Positions 1 through 14,113 of a DNA stretch of 64,000 nt are shown piece by piece. The notes under the pieces were generated by a model. It was not told the DNA's origin, did not search any database, and saw nothing but the letters and a program-made list of their open reading frames with translations. The first letter of the stretch is position 1. Each line of letters starts with the position of its first letter. The DNA is taken from NCBI GenBank assembly GCA_030647775.1, contig JAUSJC010000010.1:136718-200717 (forward strand), read 5' to 3'. Source of the stretch: Candidatus Curtissbacteria bacterium (GTDB lineage Bacteria; Patescibacteriota; Microgenomatia; Curtissbacterales; GWA2-41-24). The position numbers were made by a program, and so were the translations under genes.

Positions 1-948
1 ATATTGGCCCCGGTTGTTTTGCTTAAGTACTACAATTTCCTTCTCACGCCCGTTGCCACTAGCAGTCAGGAAAATCAAATCTTTGTGGTTAAACCCGGCC
101 AGCCCTTAGCGCAAATTGCTCAAAATCTGGCTGAAGATAAGATTATCAGAAACGCTTTTGCATTCAGGCTTCTGGCCACCCAAATGGGGATTGCCAAAAA
201 TATCCAGGCCGGTGACTATCGTTTTTCACCGGGTCAATCCGCCACAGAAATAGCAAGAACCTTAACGCATGGCGCCATTGATATTTGGATTACCTTACCG
301 GAAGGCTTGCGAATTGAAGAACAAGCCCAAAGGATTTCCGATAAAATTAATACTTCCCAAAACGACAAAGCCCAATTTGATAAAGAGAGTTACATTAAAC
401 TCGCCAAAGAAGGTTATATGTTTCCCGACACTTACTTAATTGCCAAAGATGCTGGTGCCGTCGACGTTGCCCAAAAGCTAAGAGACACGTTTGATCAAAA
501 AGTAGATAGCCGGATTTTAGAAAAAGGGGCAAAAAATAACTTAACGGGGTATCAAGTTGTCATTATGGCATCACTCATCGAAAGGGAAGCACGGGGCGAC
601 GAAGAAAAACCGATTATTGCCGGAATCTTATTAAACCGTCTGCAGGCGGGGATTGCGCTCCAAATCGATGCTACAGTCCAATACGCCAAAGGTTACGACG
701 CCGCCAAAAAAACCTGGTGGGCACCCGTTTCGGTCAGCGATTACTCAACCGTCCGTTCTCCTTACAATACTTATCTTGCCCCCGGCCTGCCGCCCGCTCC
801 GATTTCAAATCCGGGTTTGGTCTCGATCCGCGCCGCCGCCGAACCGGCTGATACTCCGTACCTCTACTATATCCACGACCAAAAAGGCAAAATCCATTAT
901 GCTAAAACCATAGAAGAGCACAACGCCAATATCCAAAAGTATCTCTAA
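1..948 (+). CDS. mltG: Endolytic murein transglycosylase MltG/YceG; 5' end lies outside the window
   Basis: ORF 4..948 is open to the window edge. YceG-family motifs GDYRF, YMFPDTY, REARGDEE, NTYLAPGLPPAPISNPG and YLYY are present. There is no N-terminal TM helix, so the N-terminus is upstream. Confidence 0.85.
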   Translation: MLAPVVLLKYYNFLLTPVATSSQENQIFVVKPGQPLAQIAQNLAEDKIIRNAFAFRLLATQMGIAKNIQAGDYRFSPGQSATEIARTLTHGAIDIWITLPEGLRIEEQAQRISDKINTSQNDKAQFDKESYIKLAKEGYMFPDTYLIAKDAGAVDVAQKLRDTFDQKVDSRILEKGAKNNLTGYQVVIMASLIEREARGDEEKPIIAGILLNRLQAGIALQIDATVQYAKGYDAAKKTWWAPVSVSDYSTVRSPYNTYLAPGLPPAPISNPGLVSIRAAAEPADTPYLYYIHDQKGKIHYAKTIEEHNANIQKYL

Positions 949-951
949 ATA
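924..951. repeat. 28-bp direct repeat, copy 1 (last codons and stop of mltG)
   Basis: cgccaatatccaaaagtatctctaaata recurs at 1667..1694 with one mismatch, bracketing the BrnT/BrnA module. Confidence 0.8.
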
Positions 952-986
952 CCCATCTTGATTTTGTTATACAAATGTAATACAAT

Positions 987-1265
987 ATGACAAAGATAGT
1001 AATTAAAAAATTGGTTTGGGATAAACATAATCTCGAGCATATCGCCAAACATAATGTTACAGTTGATGAAGCCCAAGAGGCAATTCGTAATTTTATCGCT
1101 CACAAGATTGCTAAGAAGGGAAGGTATTTAGCAATCGGCAGATCCGGCTCCAGATTAATATCTTTAGTAGTCGGAAGAATAAGCACAGGCGTATATTATC
1201 CCGTAAGCGTTAGAGATTCTAGCAAAAAGGAGAGAAAGGAAATATATGAAAAAGAAAAAATTTAA
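987..1265 (+). CDS. brnT: BrnT-like toxin (DUF497 ribonuclease toxin)
   Basis: 92 aa. The WDxxKxxxNxxKHxV...EA...F motif and the C-terminal ...ERKEIYEKE are typical of BrnT. It overlaps the downstream partner by 20 nt. Confidence 0.75.
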   Translation: MTKIVIKKLVWDKHNLEHIAKHNVTVDEAQEAIRNFIAHKIAKKGRYLAIGRSGSRLISLVVGRISTGVYYPVSVRDSSKKERKEIYEKEKI

Positions 1266-1521
1266 ATTTCCTGATTTTGACAAAATGAGTTATAAGAAAG
1301 AAGCAGAGTGGTGGGATAAACATGACTTCACTGAATTTTGGGATGAGCTTAAAGATGTTGATCTTGAAGTCGAACTGCATAAGCCCCGCGACGAAACTTT
1401 AGTCCTGCGCCTGCAAAAAAGCCTCAAAGAAAAGTTAGAAGTTGTTGCCAGATCAAAAGGCTTAAATATCTCCGCTCTTGCCCGTATGTGGTTTGCCGAA
1501 AAGCTCAAGGAAGTAAAATAG
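1246..1521 (+). CDS. brnA: BrnA-like antitoxin (CopG/RHH-type)
   Basis: 91 aa. It has the WWDKHDFTEFWDEL N-terminus and the C-terminal ...GLNISALARMWFAEKLKE segment characteristic of BrnA antitoxins. It is translationally overlapped with brnT. Confidence 0.7.
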   Translation: MKKKKFKFPDFDKMSYKKEAEWWDKHDFTEFWDELKDVDLEVELHKPRDETLVLRLQKSLKEKLEVVARSKGLNISALARMWFAEKLKEVK

Positions 1522-1624
1522 ATTCCCACGGCCCAAAGGCCGTGGTTCTCTCTTCCTCGCTCAAAATTCGCTCCTAGACCCGCAGTTCTGCATTGCAGAA
1601 CGAGGATCGCATGGCACTGTATAT

Positions 1625-1650
1625 CTCCGTCCTGAAGGACGGAGTTTTTT
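1625..1650 (+). terminator. Rho-independent terminator after brnTA
   Basis: ctccgtcc-tgaa-ggacggag is an 8-bp perfect stem followed by tttttt. A further hairpin cacggcc-caaa-ggccgtg lies at 1527..1544. Confidence 0.7.
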
Positions 1651-1666
1651 CGCTCAGAATAAAAAG

Positions 1667-1694
1667 CGCCAATATCCAAAAGTATCTGTAAATA
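1667..1694. repeat. 28-bp direct repeat, copy 2
   Basis: Matches 924..951 at 27 of 28 positions. Confidence 0.8.
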
Positions 1695-1890
1695 TACGGC
1701 ACGTTCTTGACTTAGCATTTTTCATATTGTCACCCTGAACTCGTTTCAGGATTTTTCTCTCCTATGGTCATTGCGAGCGTAGCGCGGCAATCTCGTCTAG
1801 CCTTGATTTTGAGATACGACTATAATGACAAAGGGTTTAGGCCGGCCCGTTCAGCCAATAATTATACGAAGGTGGATCGGAGTTTTTTAT

Positions 1891-2721
1891 ATGAAAAGTC
1901 CTGAGCATCAGAAAAGGAGTGTAACCGAATATGTTGAACTGGAGGCAAGGGGTGAGAAGGTTAAGCGTGCTGAAAAAGTAGCCTCTGAAAGAAATTTTGA
2001 TTTGACCCATGACGTTTGGGACGTTGAAACCGATAAAGATCGGTATTGGGTCATAACAGAGCCAACAAACCTATACTCGCATTCTGATTTTCCCAGTATG
2101 GACTATGCGCTGTCATTCCATATCGGTCTAATGAGCCGAATGAACGCTGGACAACACACAAATGCAACCGATGAAGATATTTACCGCACCCCAAAAACTT
2201 GGAGGCAATGGGAACAAGCTCACGATGCACTAGAACTCGCTGAGGAAGCAGAGGACTTTCAAGGTGTTGGTGCTAGGTGTCGAGAAGTACTGATAACTCT
2301 TGTTGATGAACTGGAAACTAGCAAACTTACAAAAAGACAAAACCCAGATATTAAAAGAGCAGACGTTAAAGCTCAGCTTGCAGCCACATACGACTTACTC
2401 GCGTCCGGAAAAGAAGCGAGGAAAATAAGGGCTCATCTTAAAACTAATTCCGATTCCACCTGGGAGCTCGTTTCCTGGTTAACACACCATAAGAATGCGG
2501 TGCGCGAGGATGCAAAATATGTCATGAATGCAACTGAACAACTTATGCTAAATACTTTGAGTATTGTCGTCCGTAGTGAGAAGTCCAAGCCAAAAAGGTG
2601 CCCGAAATGTAAGTCATATCGTGTAATTTCAGATTTTCGTTCAGAGTTGATGTATAAAGTCGAACATCCCTATGTTGAACTTTGTGAAGCTTGTGGATGG
2701 GGAGGCAATAAACCAAAATAA
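1891..2721 (+). CDS. Hypothetical protein with a C-terminal CxxC...CxxC zinc ribbon
   Basis: ORF 1825..2721. The likely start is ATG 1891, preceded by aggtgga. The C-terminus reads CPKCKS...CEACGW. No family recognised. GC is lower than in the core genes. Confidence 0.5.
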   Translation: MKSPEHQKRSVTEYVELEARGEKVKRAEKVASERNFDLTHDVWDVETDKDRYWVITEPTNLYSHSDFPSMDYALSFHIGLMSRMNAGQHTNATDEDIYRTPKTWRQWEQAHDALELAEEAEDFQGVGARCREVLITLVDELETSKLTKRQNPDIKRADVKAQLAATYDLLASGKEARKIRAHLKTNSDSTWELVSWLTHHKNAVREDAKYVMNATEQLMLNTLSIVVRSEKSKPKRCPKCKSYRVISDFRSELMYKVEHPYVELCEACGWGGNKPK

Positions 2722-2774
2722 TTTTAGACCGAGCCGTTCAGCTTAATTTAGCCTCGATTTGCTATACTTTCCGC

Positions 2775-3473
2775 ATGACATTGAAAATTATCTCTTGGAA
2801 TATTTGGGAAGGAAAATATTTTACAGGCATAATTGATTTTTTAAAGAAGTCAGATGCGGATATAATTGGTTTTCAGGAGGCCGTACAAGAAAAGGACGGA
2901 AAGGCAAATACGGCACAACTTATCGCAAATGAGCTGGGGTACGAATTTGTTTACGCAACAACTTGTGAAATAGAAAAAGACGGAAGAATTTTAGATAGAG
3001 GAAATGCAATTCTTAGCAAGCACAGGATCATCGAAAATAAAACGTATGTCTTATCTGAAATCGACAAACGCACAGCCATAGGAGCGGATATAGAGGTTAA
3101 AGGTACAAAGCTGCATGTTTTCAACACACATTTAATCCACACCCACCAAAAACCATCTGGTACACAAAACTTGCAAGCTAAAAATTTAATTGAAGTTTTG
3201 CCAAAGAGGGCAACCATCCTTATGGGGGATTTTAATGCTGTTCCTGGAAGTGTTGCCGTTAAGAAGATATCTAAGGTTCTTAAAAATACTGATACTTCTA
3301 ATCTTCCAACGTGGTGCGTATATCCCGAAGGCTGTAAAGTATGTAAACCAAAAGGTGTTGAATACAAACTGGATTATATTTTCGTCAGTCAAGACATTAA
3401 GTGTAAATTATTTGAGGTAGGAAGTTCGAAAGGATCAGACCATTTACCCATTTCAGCAATAATCCAGATATAG
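2775..3473 (+). CDS. Endonuclease/exonuclease/phosphatase (EEP) family protein
   Basis: 232 aa. EEP signatures are present: ISWNIW, GFQE, NTHL and GDFN, plus a C-terminal SDHLPI. Confidence 0.75.
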   Translation: MTLKIISWNIWEGKYFTGIIDFLKKSDADIIGFQEAVQEKDGKANTAQLIANELGYEFVYATTCEIEKDGRILDRGNAILSKHRIIENKTYVLSEIDKRTAIGADIEVKGTKLHVFNTHLIHTHQKPSGTQNLQAKNLIEVLPKRATILMGDFNAVPGSVAVKKISKVLKNTDTSNLPTWCVYPEGCKVCKPKGVEYKLDYIFVSQDIKCKLFEVGSSKGSDHLPISAIIQI

Positions 3474-3562
3474 ATATAGCGATTTCCATATACGTTCCAA
3501 CATAGCCAGCCAGCGCCCAATCCTTCCGCCCCACGCCATAATTTCTGTGTGTGGCCGCCTTC

Positions 3563-3591
3563 TTGACATAAAAGCCAGAATTCTGTACAAT
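3563..3591 (+). promoter_or_regulatory. Sigma70-like promoter for phd-relE
   Basis: TTGACA (3563-3568), 17-nt spacer, TACAAT (3586-3591), 9 nt before the ATG at 3601. Confidence 0.55.
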
Positions 3592-3600
3592 CTGAATATT

Positions 3601-3873
3601 ATGAATACTGTTCTTCCTTTAACCGAAGCGAGAAATAAATTTGCCGAACTCATTGATGATGCAAGCAAAATGTTTTCCCGCTTTACCATCACCAGAAACG
3701 GTAAACCGGAGGCAGTTCTCATGAGTAAGGACGAATATGATGCCCTGATCGATACTTTAGAAATTCTTTCCAACCCTGTCACTATGGCCTCTATCCGCCG
3801 CGGGGAAAAAGATATCAAAGCAGGCAGGGTCAAACCGCTTGAAGATGTCCTAAAAGATCTCAAGCTCTCCTAA
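3601..3873 (+). CDS. phd: Phd/YefM-family antitoxin
   Basis: MNTVLPLTEARNKFAELID...FTITRNGKPEAVLMSKDEYDALIDTLEIL is the canonical YefM fold sequence. The ORF track begins at 3547 but the conserved N-terminus starts at ATG 3601. Confidence 0.8.
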   Translation: MNTVLPLTEARNKFAELIDDASKMFSRFTITRNGKPEAVLMSKDEYDALIDTLEILSNPVTMASIRRGEKDIKAGRVKPLEDVLKDLKLS

Positions 3874-4124
3874 TGTATCAGGTTTTCCTCACCAATGAGG
3901 CCGAGAAACAATTAAAATCACTAGACAGTAGGTATCAAAAAGCACTTGCTCAAGCGCTCAAAAGACTTGCCGAAAATACCAAGGCCGGCGCACCACTGCG
4001 TCGGGAGCTTAAGGGTAAATACAAATTAAGGGTTTCAAGATACAGAATAATCTATGAATTTGATTATGGAAAAAAGATTATTTGGGTTTTGACAATCGAC
4101 CACAGAAAAGATGTTTATAGATAA
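3873..4124 (+). CDS. relE: RelE/ParE-family toxin
   Basis: 83 aa. The LKGKYKLRVSRYRIIYEFDYGKKIIWVLTIDHRKDVY motif is RelE/StbE-like. Its start overlaps the phd stop in TAATG. Confidence 0.8.
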   Translation: MYQVFLTNEAEKQLKSLDSRYQKALAQALKRLAENTKAGAPLRRELKGKYKLRVSRYRIIYEFDYGKKIIWVLTIDHRKDVYR

Positions 4125-4153
4125 TTTCTGTACGCCTGAAACTTTTACATCCC

Positions 4154-4182
4154 TTGACAAGATAAGCCTGCGGTGATATATT
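4154..4182 (+). promoter_or_regulatory. Candidate promoter upstream of rpoB
   Basis: TTGACA (4154-4159), 17 nt, TATATT with an upstream TG (extended -10), about 260 nt before the rpoB start. Confidence 0.4.
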
Positions 4183-4440
4183 TTCCCTAGAACGAATCCT
4201 TTCAAGGGGGTATTTATCGTACCTTCTTGAGTTTTTGTTGTTTGAAAAACTCCGCCAGATGGCGGATTTCCTGTGGGTCATCCTTCAACTCGATTTAAAA
4301 GGTTTACCCGCCAAAGATCCCAGCCCGCATTGCTACGCAAAGCGTTGCAGGCGGGGCTCTTCGAGCCGCAGTTCATATGAACGAGGCGAGAAGTAAGATC
4401 GGGCGGGCCTGTCAAAGTCAAATAACCATTTATAATACCT

Positions 4441-7400
4441 GTGGCAAAACGCATAACTTGGGGTCAACCTACCAATCATAATTTACCCCCGCTGGACTTA
4501 GTCGAGGTTCAAAGGGAATCTTTTGCCCAATTTCTGGAAAACGGTATCGGTGAAGTTCTGGAAGAAGTTTCCCCAATCGACGATTTTACCGGTAAAAACT
4601 TTACTCTAACTTTAGGCAAACATAGCTTTAGTAAATCCAAACACACTCCTGAAGAAGCAAGCGAAAAAGGCCTTACCTACGATCTCCCCCTTAAAGTAGA
4701 AGCAACAGTTTTAAACAAACAAACCGGCGCCAAAAATTCCCAGGAAGTTTTCTTATGTGACCTGCCGATGATGATGGAAAAAGGTTCATTCATCGTCAAT
4801 GGCATTGAGCGTGCCGTTGTTAACCAGATGGTTAGAGCCCCGGGCGCCTATTATTCTGCCGAAATCGATCCTTCAACCGGTAAAATTCTCTACAGCTGCG
4901 AAATCAGACCCCTTCGAGGTTCATGGCTGGAGTTTGCTATCACCAAAAACGATATTATTACTGTCAAAATTGACAGGCGCCGTAAATTCCCGGCGACAAC
5001 TTTCCTTCGTGCAATCGGTTTTTCCACCGATGAAGAAATTTGGAAGCTCTTTGATTTTGTTAAAGAAGACCAAATCAAAGATTTTCTCAAAAACACTTTT
5101 GCCAAGGATTCAACCGAAAACACCGATGAGGCGCTTCTGGAAATCTACCGCAAAATGCGTCCGGGCGACCACGTCATTTTGGATAACGCCAAAGCGCTTA
5201 TGGATACGATGTTTTTCAACACGCGCCGCTATTCTCTTGGTAAAGTCGGCAGGTACAAAATCCAAAAACGTTTGGGAAAAATCAAAGAAACGCTTTCGGC
5301 AAAAGACGATCCCGAAAGCCAAATCTTAACCCAGGCAGATTTCATCGGTGCCATTGCCTATATTTTCGAACTCGTGATGGGTAGAGGCAGAGTTGATGAT
5401 ATCGACCATCTTGGCAATCGCCGAATTCGCCGCGTCGGTGAACTTGTCGCCCAGAATGCTTTCAGGATCGGAATTTTAAGGCTCGAGCGGGTTATAAAAG
5501 AAAGAATGAGCTTGACCCCCTTGGATGTTGTTCCTTCCCCTGCATCTCTTATTAATGCCCGCCCGATAATTTCAGCCGTTAACGAATTCTTCCGTTCCAG
5601 CCAGCTTTCCACCATTCTTGACCAAACCAACCCGCTGGCAGAACTTGATAATCTTCGCCGCCTGACCGTTATGGGAACCGGTGGTATTGCCCGGGAACGT
5701 GCCGCCTTCTCAATTCGCGACATTAACCATTCCCAGTATTCCAGGATTTGCCCGATTCGTTCTCCCGAGGGTCCCAATATCGGCCTTGTAACCTATATGT
5801 CTCTTTATTGTCGTATCAACGAGTACGGTTTTTTGGAAGCTCCTTACAAAAAAGTTGTTAAAGACAAAACGGGCAAACCCAATGTTTCCGACGAAATTGT
5901 TTATCTGGCTGCCGACGACGAAGAAGATTATTACATCACCCATGCACAGGTTGCCGTAGATAAAAAGGGTTATTTTGAAGATGACAGGGTTGCGGTCCGC
6001 TATAAAGGGGAATTTACAACTGCCGATATCGGTGTTGTTGACTTCATTGATGTTGTTCCAAGACAAGTTGTTGGAACTTCGGCTTCTCTAATTCCGTTCT
6101 TGGCTCACGATGAAGCTAATCGTGCCCTAATGGGAACCCACATGCAGTGTCAGGCAGTTCCCTTGATTAAGCCCGAGTCACCCGTAGTTGGGACTGGTAT
6201 GGAAGCAGTTGTTGGTGAAAATATGGGCCGTGTAATAAAAGCCGTGGAGGATGGCCTTGTAATCTACGCCGATAGCAAAAAAGTTACCCTCAAAACCAAA
6301 ACCCGTGGAACGCTCACTTATCCGATCCAGAAATTCACAAGGTCTCCTCAAAGTACCTGCTATTCCCAAAGGCCTCGGGTTTTTACCGGCCAAAAGGTTC
6401 GAAGGGGCGAAGTTCTTATTGACGGATCCGCAACCGATGACGGCGAACTGGCACTTGGCCAAAATTTAACAATCGCCTACATGAGCTTTGATGGCCTTGG
6501 TTATGAGGACGCTATCATCATTTCCGACAGGCTGTTTAAGGAAGATGTCTTAACCTCGATCCATATTGAAGAATATGAGACTCCTGTAGTCGAGACAAAG
6601 CTTGGTCCGGAAGAGACGACCCGCGATATTCCCAATGTTTCCGAAGAAGATCTTGCCAATCTCGACGAGCAGGGTGTTGTGGTCATCGGTGCCGATGTTG
6701 GTCCCAATGATATTCTGGTTGGCAAAATCGCCCCCAAAGGCGAAACGGAGTTAACGGCCGAAGAAAGACTTTTAAGAACCATCTTTGGCGAGAAAGCTAG
6801 GGAAGTGCGTGATACTTCTCTTCGCATGCCCCACGGTGAAAAGGGAACAGTTATCGATGTTAAAATCCTTTCCCGCGAGGAGGGTGACGAATTGGAGCAT
6901 GGCGCTCTTTCTAAAATCTTCGTTAAAGTTGCTCAAATGAGAAAAGTTGTTGTCGGCGACAAACTGGCCGGCCGCCACGGTAATAAAGGTGTCATCTCCA
7001 AGATTATTCCAACTTACGATATGCCTCACCTTGAAGATGGTACCCCGATTGACGTCATCATCAGCCCGCTTTCTGTACTTTCCCGTATGAACTTGGGTCA
7101 GCTTCTGGAAACTCATCTTGGTATTGCGGTATCAAAACTCAATTACAAAGTTGCCCTCCCCGTTTTTGAGCATATTTCCGAGGATCAAATTGTTGGCGAG
7201 CTTAAAAAAGCGGGTCTTCCACTCGACGGCCGTACCACTCTTTACGATGGCCGTTCAGGTCTGGCCTTCGACAGGCCGATTGTTGTCGGCACAGCTTATA
7301 TTCTTAAACTCATCCATATGGTTGAGGATAAAACCCACGCCCGCTCAACCGGTCCATACTCCTTAATTACCCAACAGCCTTTGGGTGGTAAAGCTCAAAT

Positions 7401-7785
7401 GGGCGGCCAGCGTCTTGGTGAAATGGAAGTCTGGGCACTGGAAGCCTACGGTGCCGCTTTCACCTTGCAGGAAATGTTAACCATCAAGTCTGACGATGTT
7501 GTTGGCCGCGCCAAGGCATTTGAGGCTATCATCAAAGGTGAAGAAATTCCTCAGGCCCTAATCCCTGAATCGTTTAAGGTCTTGGTCAAGGAACTGAACT
7601 CTCTTGGCTTAAATGTCCAAACCATTGGTGCCAAAGTCGCCGTCGAAGAAGTTTCAAGCGAAAAAGATGTCAAAAAAGCGCAAGAACTGGCAGAAATTTC
7701 TGGTGCCGAAATTGTTGTAACCGAGGCCGAAATTATAAAAGCTGATAGCCCTATGGAACTTGAGGAAGGAGCAAAACCAGCGTGA
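4441..7785 (+). CDS. rpoB: DNA-directed RNA polymerase subunit beta
   Basis: 1114 aa with a GTG start. Conserved blocks include LPPLDLVEVQRESFAQFL, GNRRIRRVGEL, MGTHMQCQAVPL and GQRLGEMEVWALEAYGAA. Confidence 0.97.
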   Translation: MAKRITWGQPTNHNLPPLDLVEVQRESFAQFLENGIGEVLEEVSPIDDFTGKNFTLTLGKHSFSKSKHTPEEASEKGLTYDLPLKVEATVLNKQTGAKNSQEVFLCDLPMMMEKGSFIVNGIERAVVNQMVRAPGAYYSAEIDPSTGKILYSCEIRPLRGSWLEFAITKNDIITVKIDRRRKFPATTFLRAIGFSTDEEIWKLFDFVKEDQIKDFLKNTFAKDSTENTDEALLEIYRKMRPGDHVILDNAKALMDTMFFNTRRYSLGKVGRYKIQKRLGKIKETLSAKDDPESQILTQADFIGAIAYIFELVMGRGRVDDIDHLGNRRIRRVGELVAQNAFRIGILRLERVIKERMSLTPLDVVPSPASLINARPIISAVNEFFRSSQLSTILDQTNPLAELDNLRRLTVMGTGGIARERAAFSIRDINHSQYSRICPIRSPEGPNIGLVTYMSLYCRINEYGFLEAPYKKVVKDKTGKPNVSDEIVYLAADDEEDYYITHAQVAVDKKGYFEDDRVAVRYKGEFTTADIGVVDFIDVVPRQVVGTSASLIPFLAHDEANRALMGTHMQCQAVPLIKPESPVVGTGMEAVVGENMGRVIKAVEDGLVIYADSKKVTLKTKTRGTLTYPIQKFTRSPQSTCYSQRPRVFTGQKVRRGEVLIDGSATDDGELALGQNLTIAYMSFDGLGYEDAIIISDRLFKEDVLTSIHIEEYETPVVETKLGPEETTRDIPNVSEEDLANLDEQGVVVIGADVGPNDILVGKIAPKGETELTAEERLLRTIFGEKAREVRDTSLRMPHGEKGTVIDVKILSREEGDELEHGALSKIFVKVAQMRKVVVGDKLAGRHGNKGVISKIIPTYDMPHLEDGTPIDVIISPLSVLSRMNLGQLLETHLGIAVSKLNYKVALPVFEHISEDQIVGELKKAGLPLDGRTTLYDGRSGLAFDRPIVVGTAYILKLIHMVEDKTHARSTGPYSLITQQPLGGKAQMGGQRLGEMEVWALEAYGAAFTLQEMLTIKSDDVVGRAKAFEAIIKGEEIPQALIPESFKVLVKELNSLGLNVQTIGAKVAVEEVSSEKDVKKAQELAEISGAEIVVTEAEIIKADSPMELEEGAKPA

Positions 7786-12598: not shown

Positions 12599-14113
12599 AT
12601 GACAGGTTTAATTGACAGCGAACATCAACCACTTAATACTCTTACAGTAGAACTTCAGGCAGAACTTGGGTTTGAATACGATGCGAACCACGAGTGGTTA
12701 TTCAGTGATCATTTTGCATCGGTCGGTAGTGGTGATATTTATGAATTTTTACCGGCAAAAGTCAGAATTTCAGCAGATGGAACTCGATATCAAATTGGGG
12801 CAAGAAGAGTAGACATCGAAGGTCTTTTAAAGCTCGCCCGTTTAATAAATCCCCAATCACAAGGCATAGATACGGTTATAAATTTTTGGAACGGCCGTGG
12901 TGAAGTTAAAACAACAGCCGACGACGAGTTCATTTATATGGAAATAGGCATTGAACCAACTGCTGAAGGTTTAGAAAAAAAATACGATGTTTTAGGCGGT
13001 GCTTGGTACACAGCACTTTCTGCAGCTGTCAAAAATTTAACTTTCGAGCAAATGCAAAAAGATAGATGGTTTGGCGTCTCTATCAGAAATGTCTTGGGTG
13101 ACACCGAGGGTAACACAATGCAAAGCAGAAGAGTAATTTTCGGCCGCAGCCTCATTGAATCTTTTGAAGATCGAGAAAGTGAATTAGACGAAATGCCAGC
13201 GGAAACATTTAGAAGGGATACAGACAGTATGGCACCCAATTTAAGAGAATACCCGATTGGTTTTGATATTTTTGGTCTGGATAAAATGCCGGGGAGTTTA
13301 AAGTACAGAGGTATTGAAAGAAAGTCAGATGAGCTTTCACTCGGAACAAGAATTCAAGTTTATCATGACCCTAGTGGGCATTTTGCCGAAATTAATAACT
13401 ATCTACATAATTATAATTTTGAAACGCGTGAGTGGGAACGCGACAACTCCTTAAGATTAAAGCTTTTAGCCCCAGAAGGCACTGAACTTGACACTGTAGA
13501 TGATCTTAGAAGGGTCAAAAAAGCTCGACTAGTTGATAACGAATATAAAACTGAAACAGAGTACGACGTAACTGTCGCTGTTGATGATCATAGCTTACAT
13601 ATCGAATCTTCAGATGGAGAACTTGTCATAGTCCTAGGAGAACCGGGTTGTTTTGAGTGCAAAACTCCTTTATGGAAATTTCCTCATCAAAGGTACGTCG
13701 AAAAAACAAAAGGAATAGACTTTAAAACCATTAATAACCATGTGAGCGGCCATGATCAAAATGGATTAGATAGGTATTTTTTTTCGGAACAGGAAGGTCA
13801 AAGGGCAAAAGTATATTGCGCCGATTGTATTCCACAAAAAGTTGAAGATTATTTGCTGACGCATCCTTATGCCCATGAAGCGACTGCGCGAGGAATAATC
13901 CGAAAGCGTTTAGATGACGCGGGATATGGAGACGTGCAAATATGGCGAGATATGCTATCTCATACTGAGGGCAAATGGGTTGGAGAGGCCGTTATCCATT
14001 ATGAAAGAGACGGTCGCCAAATCACCAGATGTCCAGGAAGATTTGCCCTGACTGATGATGGCAAGTTTGAACCGGAGCTAATATCTCCAGAAGCTGCAAA
14101 TTTTAGGGCTTAA
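12599..14113 (+). CDS. Hypothetical 504-aa protein inserted between rpsG and fusA
   Basis: Long clean ORF with lower GC and A/T-ending codons, unlike the flanking str-operon genes. Cys pairs CFEC...CADC occur near the C-terminus. No family recognised. Confidence 0.6.
   Translation: MTGLIDSEHQPLNTLTVELQAELGFEYDANHEWLFSDHFASVGSGDIYEFLPAKVRISADGTRYQIGARRVDIEGLLKLARLINPQSQGIDTVINFWNGRGEVKTTADDEFIYMEIGIEPTAEGLEKKYDVLGGAWYTALSAAVKNLTFEQMQKDRWFGVSIRNVLGDTEGNTMQSRRVIFGRSLIESFEDRESELDEMPAETFRRDTDSMAPNLREYPIGFDIFGLDKMPGSLKYRGIERKSDELSLGTRIQVYHDPSGHFAEINNYLHNYNFETREWERDNSLRLKLLAPEGTELDTVDDLRRVKKARLVDNEYKTETEYDVTVAVDDHSLHIESSDGELVIVLGEPGCFECKTPLWKFPHQRYVEKTKGIDFKTINNHVSGHDQNGLDRYFFSEQEGQRAKVYCADCIPQKVEDYLLTHPYAHEATARGIIRKRLDDAGYGDVQIWRDMLSHTEGKWVGEAVIHYERDGRQITRCPGRFALTDDGKFEPELISPEAANFRA

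Follow-up and report, generated by a model that had tools for sequence, protein, structure and literature searches.

A probable mosaic islet of four accessory modules at the mltG-rpoB junction of a Candidatus Curtissbacteria genome

A 64-kb stretch of DNA (the window) from a Candidatus Curtissbacteria metagenome-assembled genome (MAG), i.e., a member of the candidate phyla radiation (CPR) and of Microgenomates, was analyzed, and the segment between the mltG and rpoB genes, positions 949-4153, was studied. This segment is probably a strain-specific 3.2-kb mosaic islet of four independent modules, placed at an insertion hot spot between the two genes. As we read it, module 1 would be a BrnT/BrnA-like type II toxin-antitoxin (TA) cassette that carries terminator-like hairpins and whose insertion duplicated 28 bp of the mltG 3' end. 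Module 2 would be a solitary gene from a large, horizontally mobile, and uncharacterised family of 276-aa proteins, module 3 a hydrolase of the EEP superfamily, of a kind often met in CPR bacteria, and module 4 a Phd/YefM-RelE/ParE type II TA cassette. These modules may have built up in the gap of a few bases that separates the mltG stop codon from the rpoB -35 box. The initial annotation, made from the sequence alone, had described an accessory mosaic island of six genes at this junction, and all six genes were found in the open reading frame (ORF) list where it had placed them.

The islet would be a base-resolved case of a very reduced CPR genome collecting accessory cassettes. A single tolerated position beside essential genes, which measures 4 nt when empty, has at least four different occupants among relatives. 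This makes the islet useful for studies of CPR genome plasticity, but it is not surprising. The 276-aa family is the more valuable by-product, i.e., it is large, conserved, phylogenetically scattered, and completely unannotated, and it is the only element with real potential for novelty.

All features given by window coordinates are on the forward (+) strand, unless otherwise noted. The left flank is mltG (4-948), a YceG-like endolytic transglycosylase gene (PF02618, 1.3e-77; TIGR00247, 1e-59), which is cut at its 5' end by the window edge and shows 62-93% identity to relatives. The right flank is rpoB (4441-7785), and the gene order 3' of it is rpoC, rpsL, rpsG, fusA, tuf, and the S10 operon up to secY. 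Therefore, the islet is located at the head of a core gene-expression cluster. Relatives were collected via mltG homologues, and the percentages attached to their loci (L numbers) in the comparison of junctions are mltG identities. On the left side, homology to these relatives stops at the mltG stop codon. On the right side, the window aligns from 4153/4154 onward with the mltG-rpoB spacers of L006, L095, L096, L097, and L099, and the aligned spacers have in common a TTGACA-17-TATATT promoter, a hairpin with a T run, and a conserved TTTCCTGTGGGTCATCCTTCAACTCGATTTAAAAGG block. Thus, 949-4153, i.e., 3205 bp, is extra DNA. The ancestral rpoB promoter, TTGACA-17-TATATT at 4154-4182, forms the right edge of the insertion, and it is followed by the rpoB leader (within 4154-4440), the hairpin of which was placed at 4201-4231 as a consensus from relatives. 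Both the promoter and the leader hairpin are intact 3' of the islet, and insertions are probably tolerated at this junction because these elements remain intact downstream.

The same junction is empty in six distinct related loci of Microgenomates, in which mltG is directly followed by rpoB, i.e., L096 (92%), L097/L098 (88%), L099 (84%), L006 (80%), L007 (63%), and L009 from Chisholmbacteria (44%). In L096, just 4 nt (AGGG) are found from the mltG stop codon to the rpoB -35 hexamer. Comparison of the junction across relatives therefore shows a true insertion in the window, and the island proposed from the sequence was borne out, being absent from the closest relatives while other relatives carry different inserts.

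Three relatives showed occupants of their own. L095, the closest by mltG (93%), has a single 81-aa gene (L095 1416-1661) before the rpoB promoter, and no Pfam match was found for this ORF. In L100, the occupant is an rve-family (IS481/IS3-like) transposase. The loci L099 and L100 are 100% identical across 8045 bp, including mltG, and split exactly at the rpoB -35 box, between CATCT and TGACA (L099 8045/8046); therefore, this is an insertion polymorphism within a population. The occupant in L010 (62%) is an island exceeding 8 kb. At L010 8989-16349, it encodes a Gp49/HigB-like toxin with a helix-turn-helix (HTH) antitoxin, a second HTH protein, an NYN-domain protein, Vsr, a cytosine-5 methyltransferase, a HATPase_c_3 protein, and a resolvase fragment, and it looks like a defence or restriction-modification island. 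Four of ten distinct loci, the window included, thus hold four different insertions at the mltG-rpoB junction, and no gene of the islet recurs in L010, L095, or L100. Because the occupants of the same junction differ in L095, L100, and L010, it is a hot spot where insertions recur, both in Curtissbacteria and in other Microgenomates.

The borders of the modules were visible in DNA homology. The unit of the 276-aa gene (1852-2731; coding sequence, CDS, 1891-2721) showed 93.5% DNA identity to L012 over exactly this span. The EEP unit (2739-3474) showed 77.6% DNA identity to L013/L014 across its span, and in L013/L014 the EEP gene has other neighbours than in the window. The two homology blocks end 7 nt apart, and their nearest relatives differ. 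At least two of the four modules have their own promoter-like site.

The first module starts with a promoter-like site, TTGATT-17-TACAAT (958-986), predicted by a consensus scan with a 9/12 match. The BrnT-like toxin gene of 92 aa (987-1265; PF04365, 1.2e-6; BrnT structure 3u97 in PDB, E 0.007) comes before the gene of a BrnA/CopG-type ribbon-helix-helix (RHH) antitoxin of 91 aa (1246-1521; PF12441, 2.9e-12, 47.6 bits against a cut-off of 28), with a 20-nt overlap between them. No NCBIfam match was found for the toxin. Two terminator-like hairpins lie 3' of brnA, i.e., 1526-1545 and 1625-1644, the second followed by a T run. The pair resembles BrnT/BrnA of Brucella abortus (PF04365/PF12441) in that the toxin gene is first and overlaps a CopG/RHH antitoxin gene, the best Pfam and PDB matches of the toxin are BrnT, and the antitoxin is above the PF12441 cut-off. 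It differs in that the toxin is under the Pfam threshold and the cassette is placed between 28-bp copies of a host gene end.

Copy 1 of this direct repeat (924-951) consists of the last 22 nt of the mltG CDS, the stop codon, and 3 nt beyond, and copy 2 (1667-1694) is the duplicated mltG 3' end with its stop codon. The copies match at 27 of 28 positions, and such a repeat occurred 0 times in 100 shuffles of the window. Enclosed between them is a 743-bp segment with the promoter-like site, brnT-brnA, and the two terminator-like hairpins. The repeat sequence is present once in relatives, and both copies in the window read TAAATA where relatives have TGAAGG; therefore, the duplication arose in the lineage of the window. 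Judged from its sequence, the repeat appears to be the signature of insertion by recombination at a short identical sequence. The hexamer CTTGAC at 1706-1711, 11 nt past copy 2, is the same as that at the rpoB -35 box and may mark the old mltG-rpoB junction. The region 1695-1760 was also considered as a degenerate copy of the rpoB leader and was rejected, as the best local alignments were at noise level and only the CTTGAC hexamer was kept.

The fourth module has a predicted strong sigma-70-like promoter, TTGACA-17-TACAAT at 3563-3591 (11/12 consensus match), which the initial annotation had already called textbook. It is followed by a Phd/YefM-family antitoxin gene of 90 aa (3601-3873; PF02604, 5.9e-20, 71.3 bits with a cut-off of 29.8; TIGR01552, 6e-14, 51.1 bits with a cut-off of 20.8) and a RelE/ParE-superfamily toxin gene of 83 aa (3873-4124; PF05016, 6.4e-15, 55.9 bits with a cut-off of 23; RelE-like phrog_1213, 5e-19), the start of which overlaps the phd stop by 1 nt. 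In PDB, the best match of the toxin was Rv2866 (2e-9), and RelE was also matched (1.5e-4). Against TIGR02385 (RelE/StbE), the toxin scored 21.8 bits, under the cut-off of 27.9. The cassette agrees with Phd/YefM-RelE/ParE systems, e.g., RelFG of M. tuberculosis (Rv2865/Rv2866), i.e., the antitoxin gene is first, the genes overlap by 1 nt, the promoter is sigma-70-like, both proteins are above the Pfam cut-offs, and Rv2866 is the best solved relative. The toxin sequence is compatible with either a RelE-like activity (ribosome-dependent mRNase) or a ParE-like one (gyrase poison). Both TA pairs of the initial annotation were thus supported by Pfam families, with BrnT below threshold.

The third module encodes an EEP-superfamily hydrolase of 232 aa (2775-3473; PF03372, 4e-20, 72.9 bits), which covers the full length of the profile (positions 1-225 of 225). 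The usual catalytic motifs of the ExoIII/Xth-like superfamily (WN, QE, NTH, GDFN, and SDH) were found by eye. In contrast to exodeoxyribonuclease III (Xth), the protein is far under the equivalog cut-offs, i.e., 39.7 against 99 bits for TIGR00633 and 32.2 against 182.6 bits for TIGR00195. A search at E ≤ 1e-5 gave 903 homologues, and the protein belongs to a clade of about 230-aa proteins across CPR phyla. Named homologues came from Curtiss-, Roizman-, Levy-, and Liptonbacteria, Paceibacterota, and unclassified Patescibacteria. The protein had been called an EEP-family nuclease from its sequence; membership in the superfamily stands, whereas the word nuclease was an assumption.

In base composition, the islet has a GC content of 0.406, compared with 0.463 for mltG, 0.466 for rpoB, and 0.421 for the window mean. 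The islet had been described as lower in GC than the flanking core genes, and this is correct with respect to mltG and rpoB, but it ranks at the 33rd percentile of the 3.2-kb stretches of the window. It is the flanks that are GC-rich, and the islet is not unusually GC-poor, so a compositional anomaly was ruled out by this rank. The islet proteins were also searched with PADLOC 2.0, which gave no known defence protein, only RelE against PD-Lambda-2_A (E 0.011). In the 1522-1890 spacer and the rest of 900-4500, no Rfam match was found even at E ≤ 1, and no tRNA. Two minus-strand ORFs, 1290-1718 and 3453-3863, matched no families and were taken as spurious.

By analogy with known TA families, each antitoxin (the RHH protein BrnA and the Phd/YefM protein) would bind and neutralise a ribonuclease-type toxin and repress its own promoter. 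Loss of the locus would free the longer-lived toxin, and the TA pairs would in this way stabilise themselves and the adjoining cargo (addiction), making the islet hard to lose. The 276-aa gene and the EEP gene would be unrelated cargo. Recombination at short identical sequences may have brought the cassettes in, or else a recombinase acting in trans did so, the latter being proposed because the islet encodes none. At the right end, the leader hairpin with its T run could stop read-through from the strong phd-relE promoter.

Two kinds of known structures are close to such a mosaic. Genomic islets, or regions of genome plasticity, and the 'plasmid islets' of Paracoccus plasmids (PMC3832669) are likewise short, recombinase-less patches of unrelated accessory genes including TA modules, located at a fixed site with contents interchangeable between relatives, and the islet of plasmid pAES4 contains a gene of the 276-aa family. 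The site in the window differs in being chromosomal, directly 5' of the rpoB promoter, and in a reduced CPR genome. Integron cassette arrays and clusters of attC sites lacking integron integrases (CALINs) also have tightly packed single-gene or TA units with sharp borders and short border repeats, and TA cassettes among cassettes of unknown function. In contrast to these, no attC-like inverted repeat or GTTRRRY core was seen by eye at the unit borders, and no integron integrase was found in the window region.

Several points weigh against the mosaic of independent modules. No integrase or transposase was found among the islet ORFs with Pfam and NCBIfam, and the mechanism of insertion is inferred only. 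The BrnT-like toxin scored 29.2 bits against PF04365, under the gathering cut-off of 34.5 bits. The activity of both TA pairs is presumed from knowledge of their families. The islet junctions were read from the MAG assembly alone. Smaller repeats (957-981/1802-1826, 1836-1855/2723-2742, and 1570-1588/4356-4374) were discarded as evidence, being about at chance level by our own estimate, i.e., about one such match expected per 5 kb. Finally, defence genes near 276-aa homologues elsewhere might speak for a defence role and for a more 'functional' islet.

This last point leads to the alternative that survives best, namely that the 276-aa gene is a single-gene, RNA-acting defence or abortive-infection module and the islet a small defence islet stabilised by TA pairs. 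This is possible, but we consider it unlikely. The 276-aa protein belongs to no Pfam, NCBIfam, PADLOC, or PHROG family, which counts against the defence module. Its N-terminus, MxSPEH (from 1891), is common to 40 homologues, in which C237, C240, C265, and C268 are invariant. An upstream ATG at 1825 was rejected as the start, as the 40 homologues share the MxSPEH beginning at 1891. Among 206 aligned members, H77, R83, R105, E119, Q124, R131, E132, R180, W191, H199, and the four Cys are at least 92% conserved, and such a number of invariant Arg, His, and Glu residues would suit a defence protein. The AlphaFold2 model, made with a 40-sequence alignment, had a pLDDT of 90 and was composed of an N-terminal alpha-beta4-alpha domain, a helical bundle at residues 100-230, and a C-terminal Cys4 zinc ribbon. 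The CxxC...CxxC ribbon noticed in the sequence was thus recovered both in the invariant Cys residues and in the model. The N-terminal domain (100 aa) modelled alone gave the same order, alpha-beta4-alpha, with a pLDDT of 91.

The fold matches of this model speak for an RNA-acting protein, but every one of them is statistically weak (E 0.04-3). In Foldseek, the best PDB matches of the full model were HEPN proteins, i.e., 2q00, 8yuf, 8xdj, 8xeh, 7bxo, and 1wwp (E 0.04-0.4; TM 0.5-0.65 normalised to the target), and it was the central helical bundle that found HEPN toxins (2q00, 8yuf, 8xdj, and 8xeh) as its best structural matches. The N-terminal domain had double-stranded RNA-binding domains (dsRBDs) as top matches, which were also weak (E 0.6-3; TM 0.25-0.4). 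Sequence search of PDB gave noise only, and BFVD nothing meaningful. Against a HEPN toxin, the Rx4-6H motif was absent, i.e., no R conserved in at least 60% was followed by a conserved H at a spacing of 5-7 in the 206 aligned members. In contrast to HEPN toxins of HEPN/MNT pairs, the 276-aa protein also has no MNT partner, and it has an extra N-terminal alpha/beta domain and the C-terminal zinc ribbon. Therefore, the protein should not be filed as a HEPN nuclease. Our best guess, held with low confidence, is a solitary accessory protein that binds or acts on RNA and possibly serves in defence.

The distribution of the family is also in favour of a mobile defence gene. A profile search of 1.84 billion representatives gave 1723 clusters (50% identity) at E ≤ 1e-3, of which 335 reached E ≤ 1e-30. 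The family is represented in CPR, Proteobacteria, and Actinobacteria, both chromosomally and on plasmids. The gene is solitary and spread across phyla, in loci with a GC content of 0.37 to 0.68. Plasmid copies were found in Azospirillum, Paraburkholderia, Arthrobacter, Mycobacterium, Corynebacterium, Rhizobium, Agrobacterium, Paracoccus, and Vibrio, whereas no copies were found in phage genomes, which again counts against defence. Plasmid pAES4 of Paracoccus aestuarii (5.85 kb; L101, NC_019316.1) has a family gene at 1216-2166, which lies mostly inside a low-GC 'plasmid islet' of unknown function (PMC3832669). As plasmid copies exist in cultivable bacteria, i.e., Paracoccus (pAES4), Corynebacterium atrinae, and Vibrio parahaemolyticus, the family is testable in model hosts.

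Neighbouring genes were taken from 86 loci with a 276-aa homologue, 80 from metagenomes and 6 from look-ups, with up to 5-8 kb of flanking sequence retrieved. Defence models, among them PD-DExK, AriA, SduA, PtuA, NucC, and HEC-04, were matched by about 10-13 of the 103 neighbour ORFs; this figure has no control, and many neighbours are housekeeping genes.

Several other observations concern members of the family. In L101-L103, which are plasmids of cultured bacteria, they carry the annotation 'hypothetical protein'. The pAES4 member adjoins a resolvase, the Corynebacterium atrinae member is near N-6 DNA methylase genes, an NYN-domain gene, and insertion sequence elements, and the Arthrobacter plasmid member is near a recombinase and umuDC. 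Some members are about 500 aa long (P0242, P0268, P0328, and P0361), with a C-terminal SEC-C motif, an AIG2/GGACT (gamma-glutamyl-cyclotransferase-like) domain, or a weak HNH. The L019 homologue (GC 0.63) is 68% identical to the window protein (GC 0.42), and this GC contrast suggests transfer between distant lineages.

In a few relatives, the gene is placed next to a tRNA gene. A tRNA-Gln(CTG) was found 27-54 nt 5' of the 276-aa gene in L001/L002, L018, and L019 (L001 7875-7946, L018 448-519, L019 4331-4404), and in L019 the homologue lies between tRNA-Gln and tRNA-Glu. In L015, the tRNA is apparently cut by the contig end at the same position, as seen by eye. The window (1852-1857), L012, and L016 have only a '...CAGCCA' remnant resembling a tRNA 3' end, where the cassette homology starts. 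L012 has a 13-nt exact repeat, CCTGCTCGGCAGC, on either side of the 276-aa gene, and the window has a weak flanking repeat around the unit (1836-1855/2723-2742, 17/20). Across 68 loci of the family, flanking direct repeats showed no excess (mean longest common substring 6.93 against 6.94 for the null), and the repeats in L012 and the window are only suggestive. Mobility by way of tRNA-Gln is thus a lead for the close CPR clade only. That the protein represents an undescribed family of solitary mobile genes (dsRBD-like, motif-less HEPN-like, and zinc ribbon) for RNA-acting defence or abortive infection, moving in a CPR subclade as an about 880-bp cassette at the tRNA-Gln(CTG) 3' end, is a tentative idea with a modest chance of being right.

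That the islet descends from a single integrative element, which was directed at the mltG 3' end and then decayed and lost its integrase, seems doubtful. Duplication of an att site typically leaves a repeat such as the 28-bp one of the mltG 3' end, and direct repeats of the target flank the inserted BrnTA DNA as they would flank such an element; however, they enclose only the 743-bp BrnTA segment, not the entire islet, and no ORF of the islet has a recombinase domain. TA modules are the usual survivors of decay, and the large island at this junction in L010 includes a serine recombinase, but no islet gene recurs there or in L095 or L100. The different nearest relatives of the modules and their sharp, separate boundaries also fit a decayed single element poorly.

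A chimeric join in the assembly, at the repeated 28-mer or between strains in the MAG, is very unlikely. The sequence does come from a MAG, and the junction is polymorphic within a population of related samples (L099 and L100). However, both flanks are collinear with relatives on a contig of 527 kb, and the islet runs without a break, its ORFs and promoters being intact. Final assembly k-mers are usually longer than the 28-nt repeat, which also counts against an artefact.

The least credible proposal, which we regard as very unlikely, is that the 276-aa zinc-ribbon protein and the EEP hydrolase form a two-gene (sensor and nuclease) defence system between the TA modules; the initial annotation had suggested that the two could be a two-gene system. 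The genes are on the same strand and 53 nt apart with no predicted terminator between them, and neither protein has a precise functional annotation, but an EEP homologue was found near a 276-aa homologue in 0 of the 86 loci (tblastn of flanks, E ≤ 1e-3). No conserved neighbour of any kind was detected: when 448 neighbour ORFs were clustered, no cluster was present in more than three loci, and no Pfam family occurred more than twice among the 103 neighbour ORFs. The homologues with 94%, 86%, 67%, and 65% identity to the 276-aa protein all have other neighbours, e.g., the 94% copy (L012) is followed by an APH-like (aminoglycoside-kinase-like) kinase gene, an aldo-keto reductase gene, and other genes. 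The nearest EEP homologue (73% identity) has no 276-aa neighbour, the 7-nt gap between the homology blocks separates units with different nearest relatives, and PADLOC gave no match. Absence of the pair elsewhere had been named in the initial annotation itself as an argument against a functional two-gene system. With no co-occurrence and no conserved neighbours, the two-gene system was dropped, and the pair is a chance juxtaposition, in agreement with a mosaic of independent modules.

Two further observations were made in the core gene cluster. The rpoB leader is kept across Curtissbacteria, i.e., in the window, L006 (7265-7513), L096 (1089-1350), and also L097, L099, L095, and L007. Its hairpin, of 13 bp with a T run, is attenuator- or terminator-like, and the TTTCCTGTGGGTCATCCTTCAACTCGATTTAAAAGG block comes after it. 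Compensatory changes were present at only 2 pairs among 7 sequences, and the leader had no Rfam match. Within the str operon, a 504-aa ORF (12599-14113) without matches in Pfam or NCBIfam separates rpsG (S7) from fusA (EF-G), and the core gene cluster may have taken up a further insertion there.

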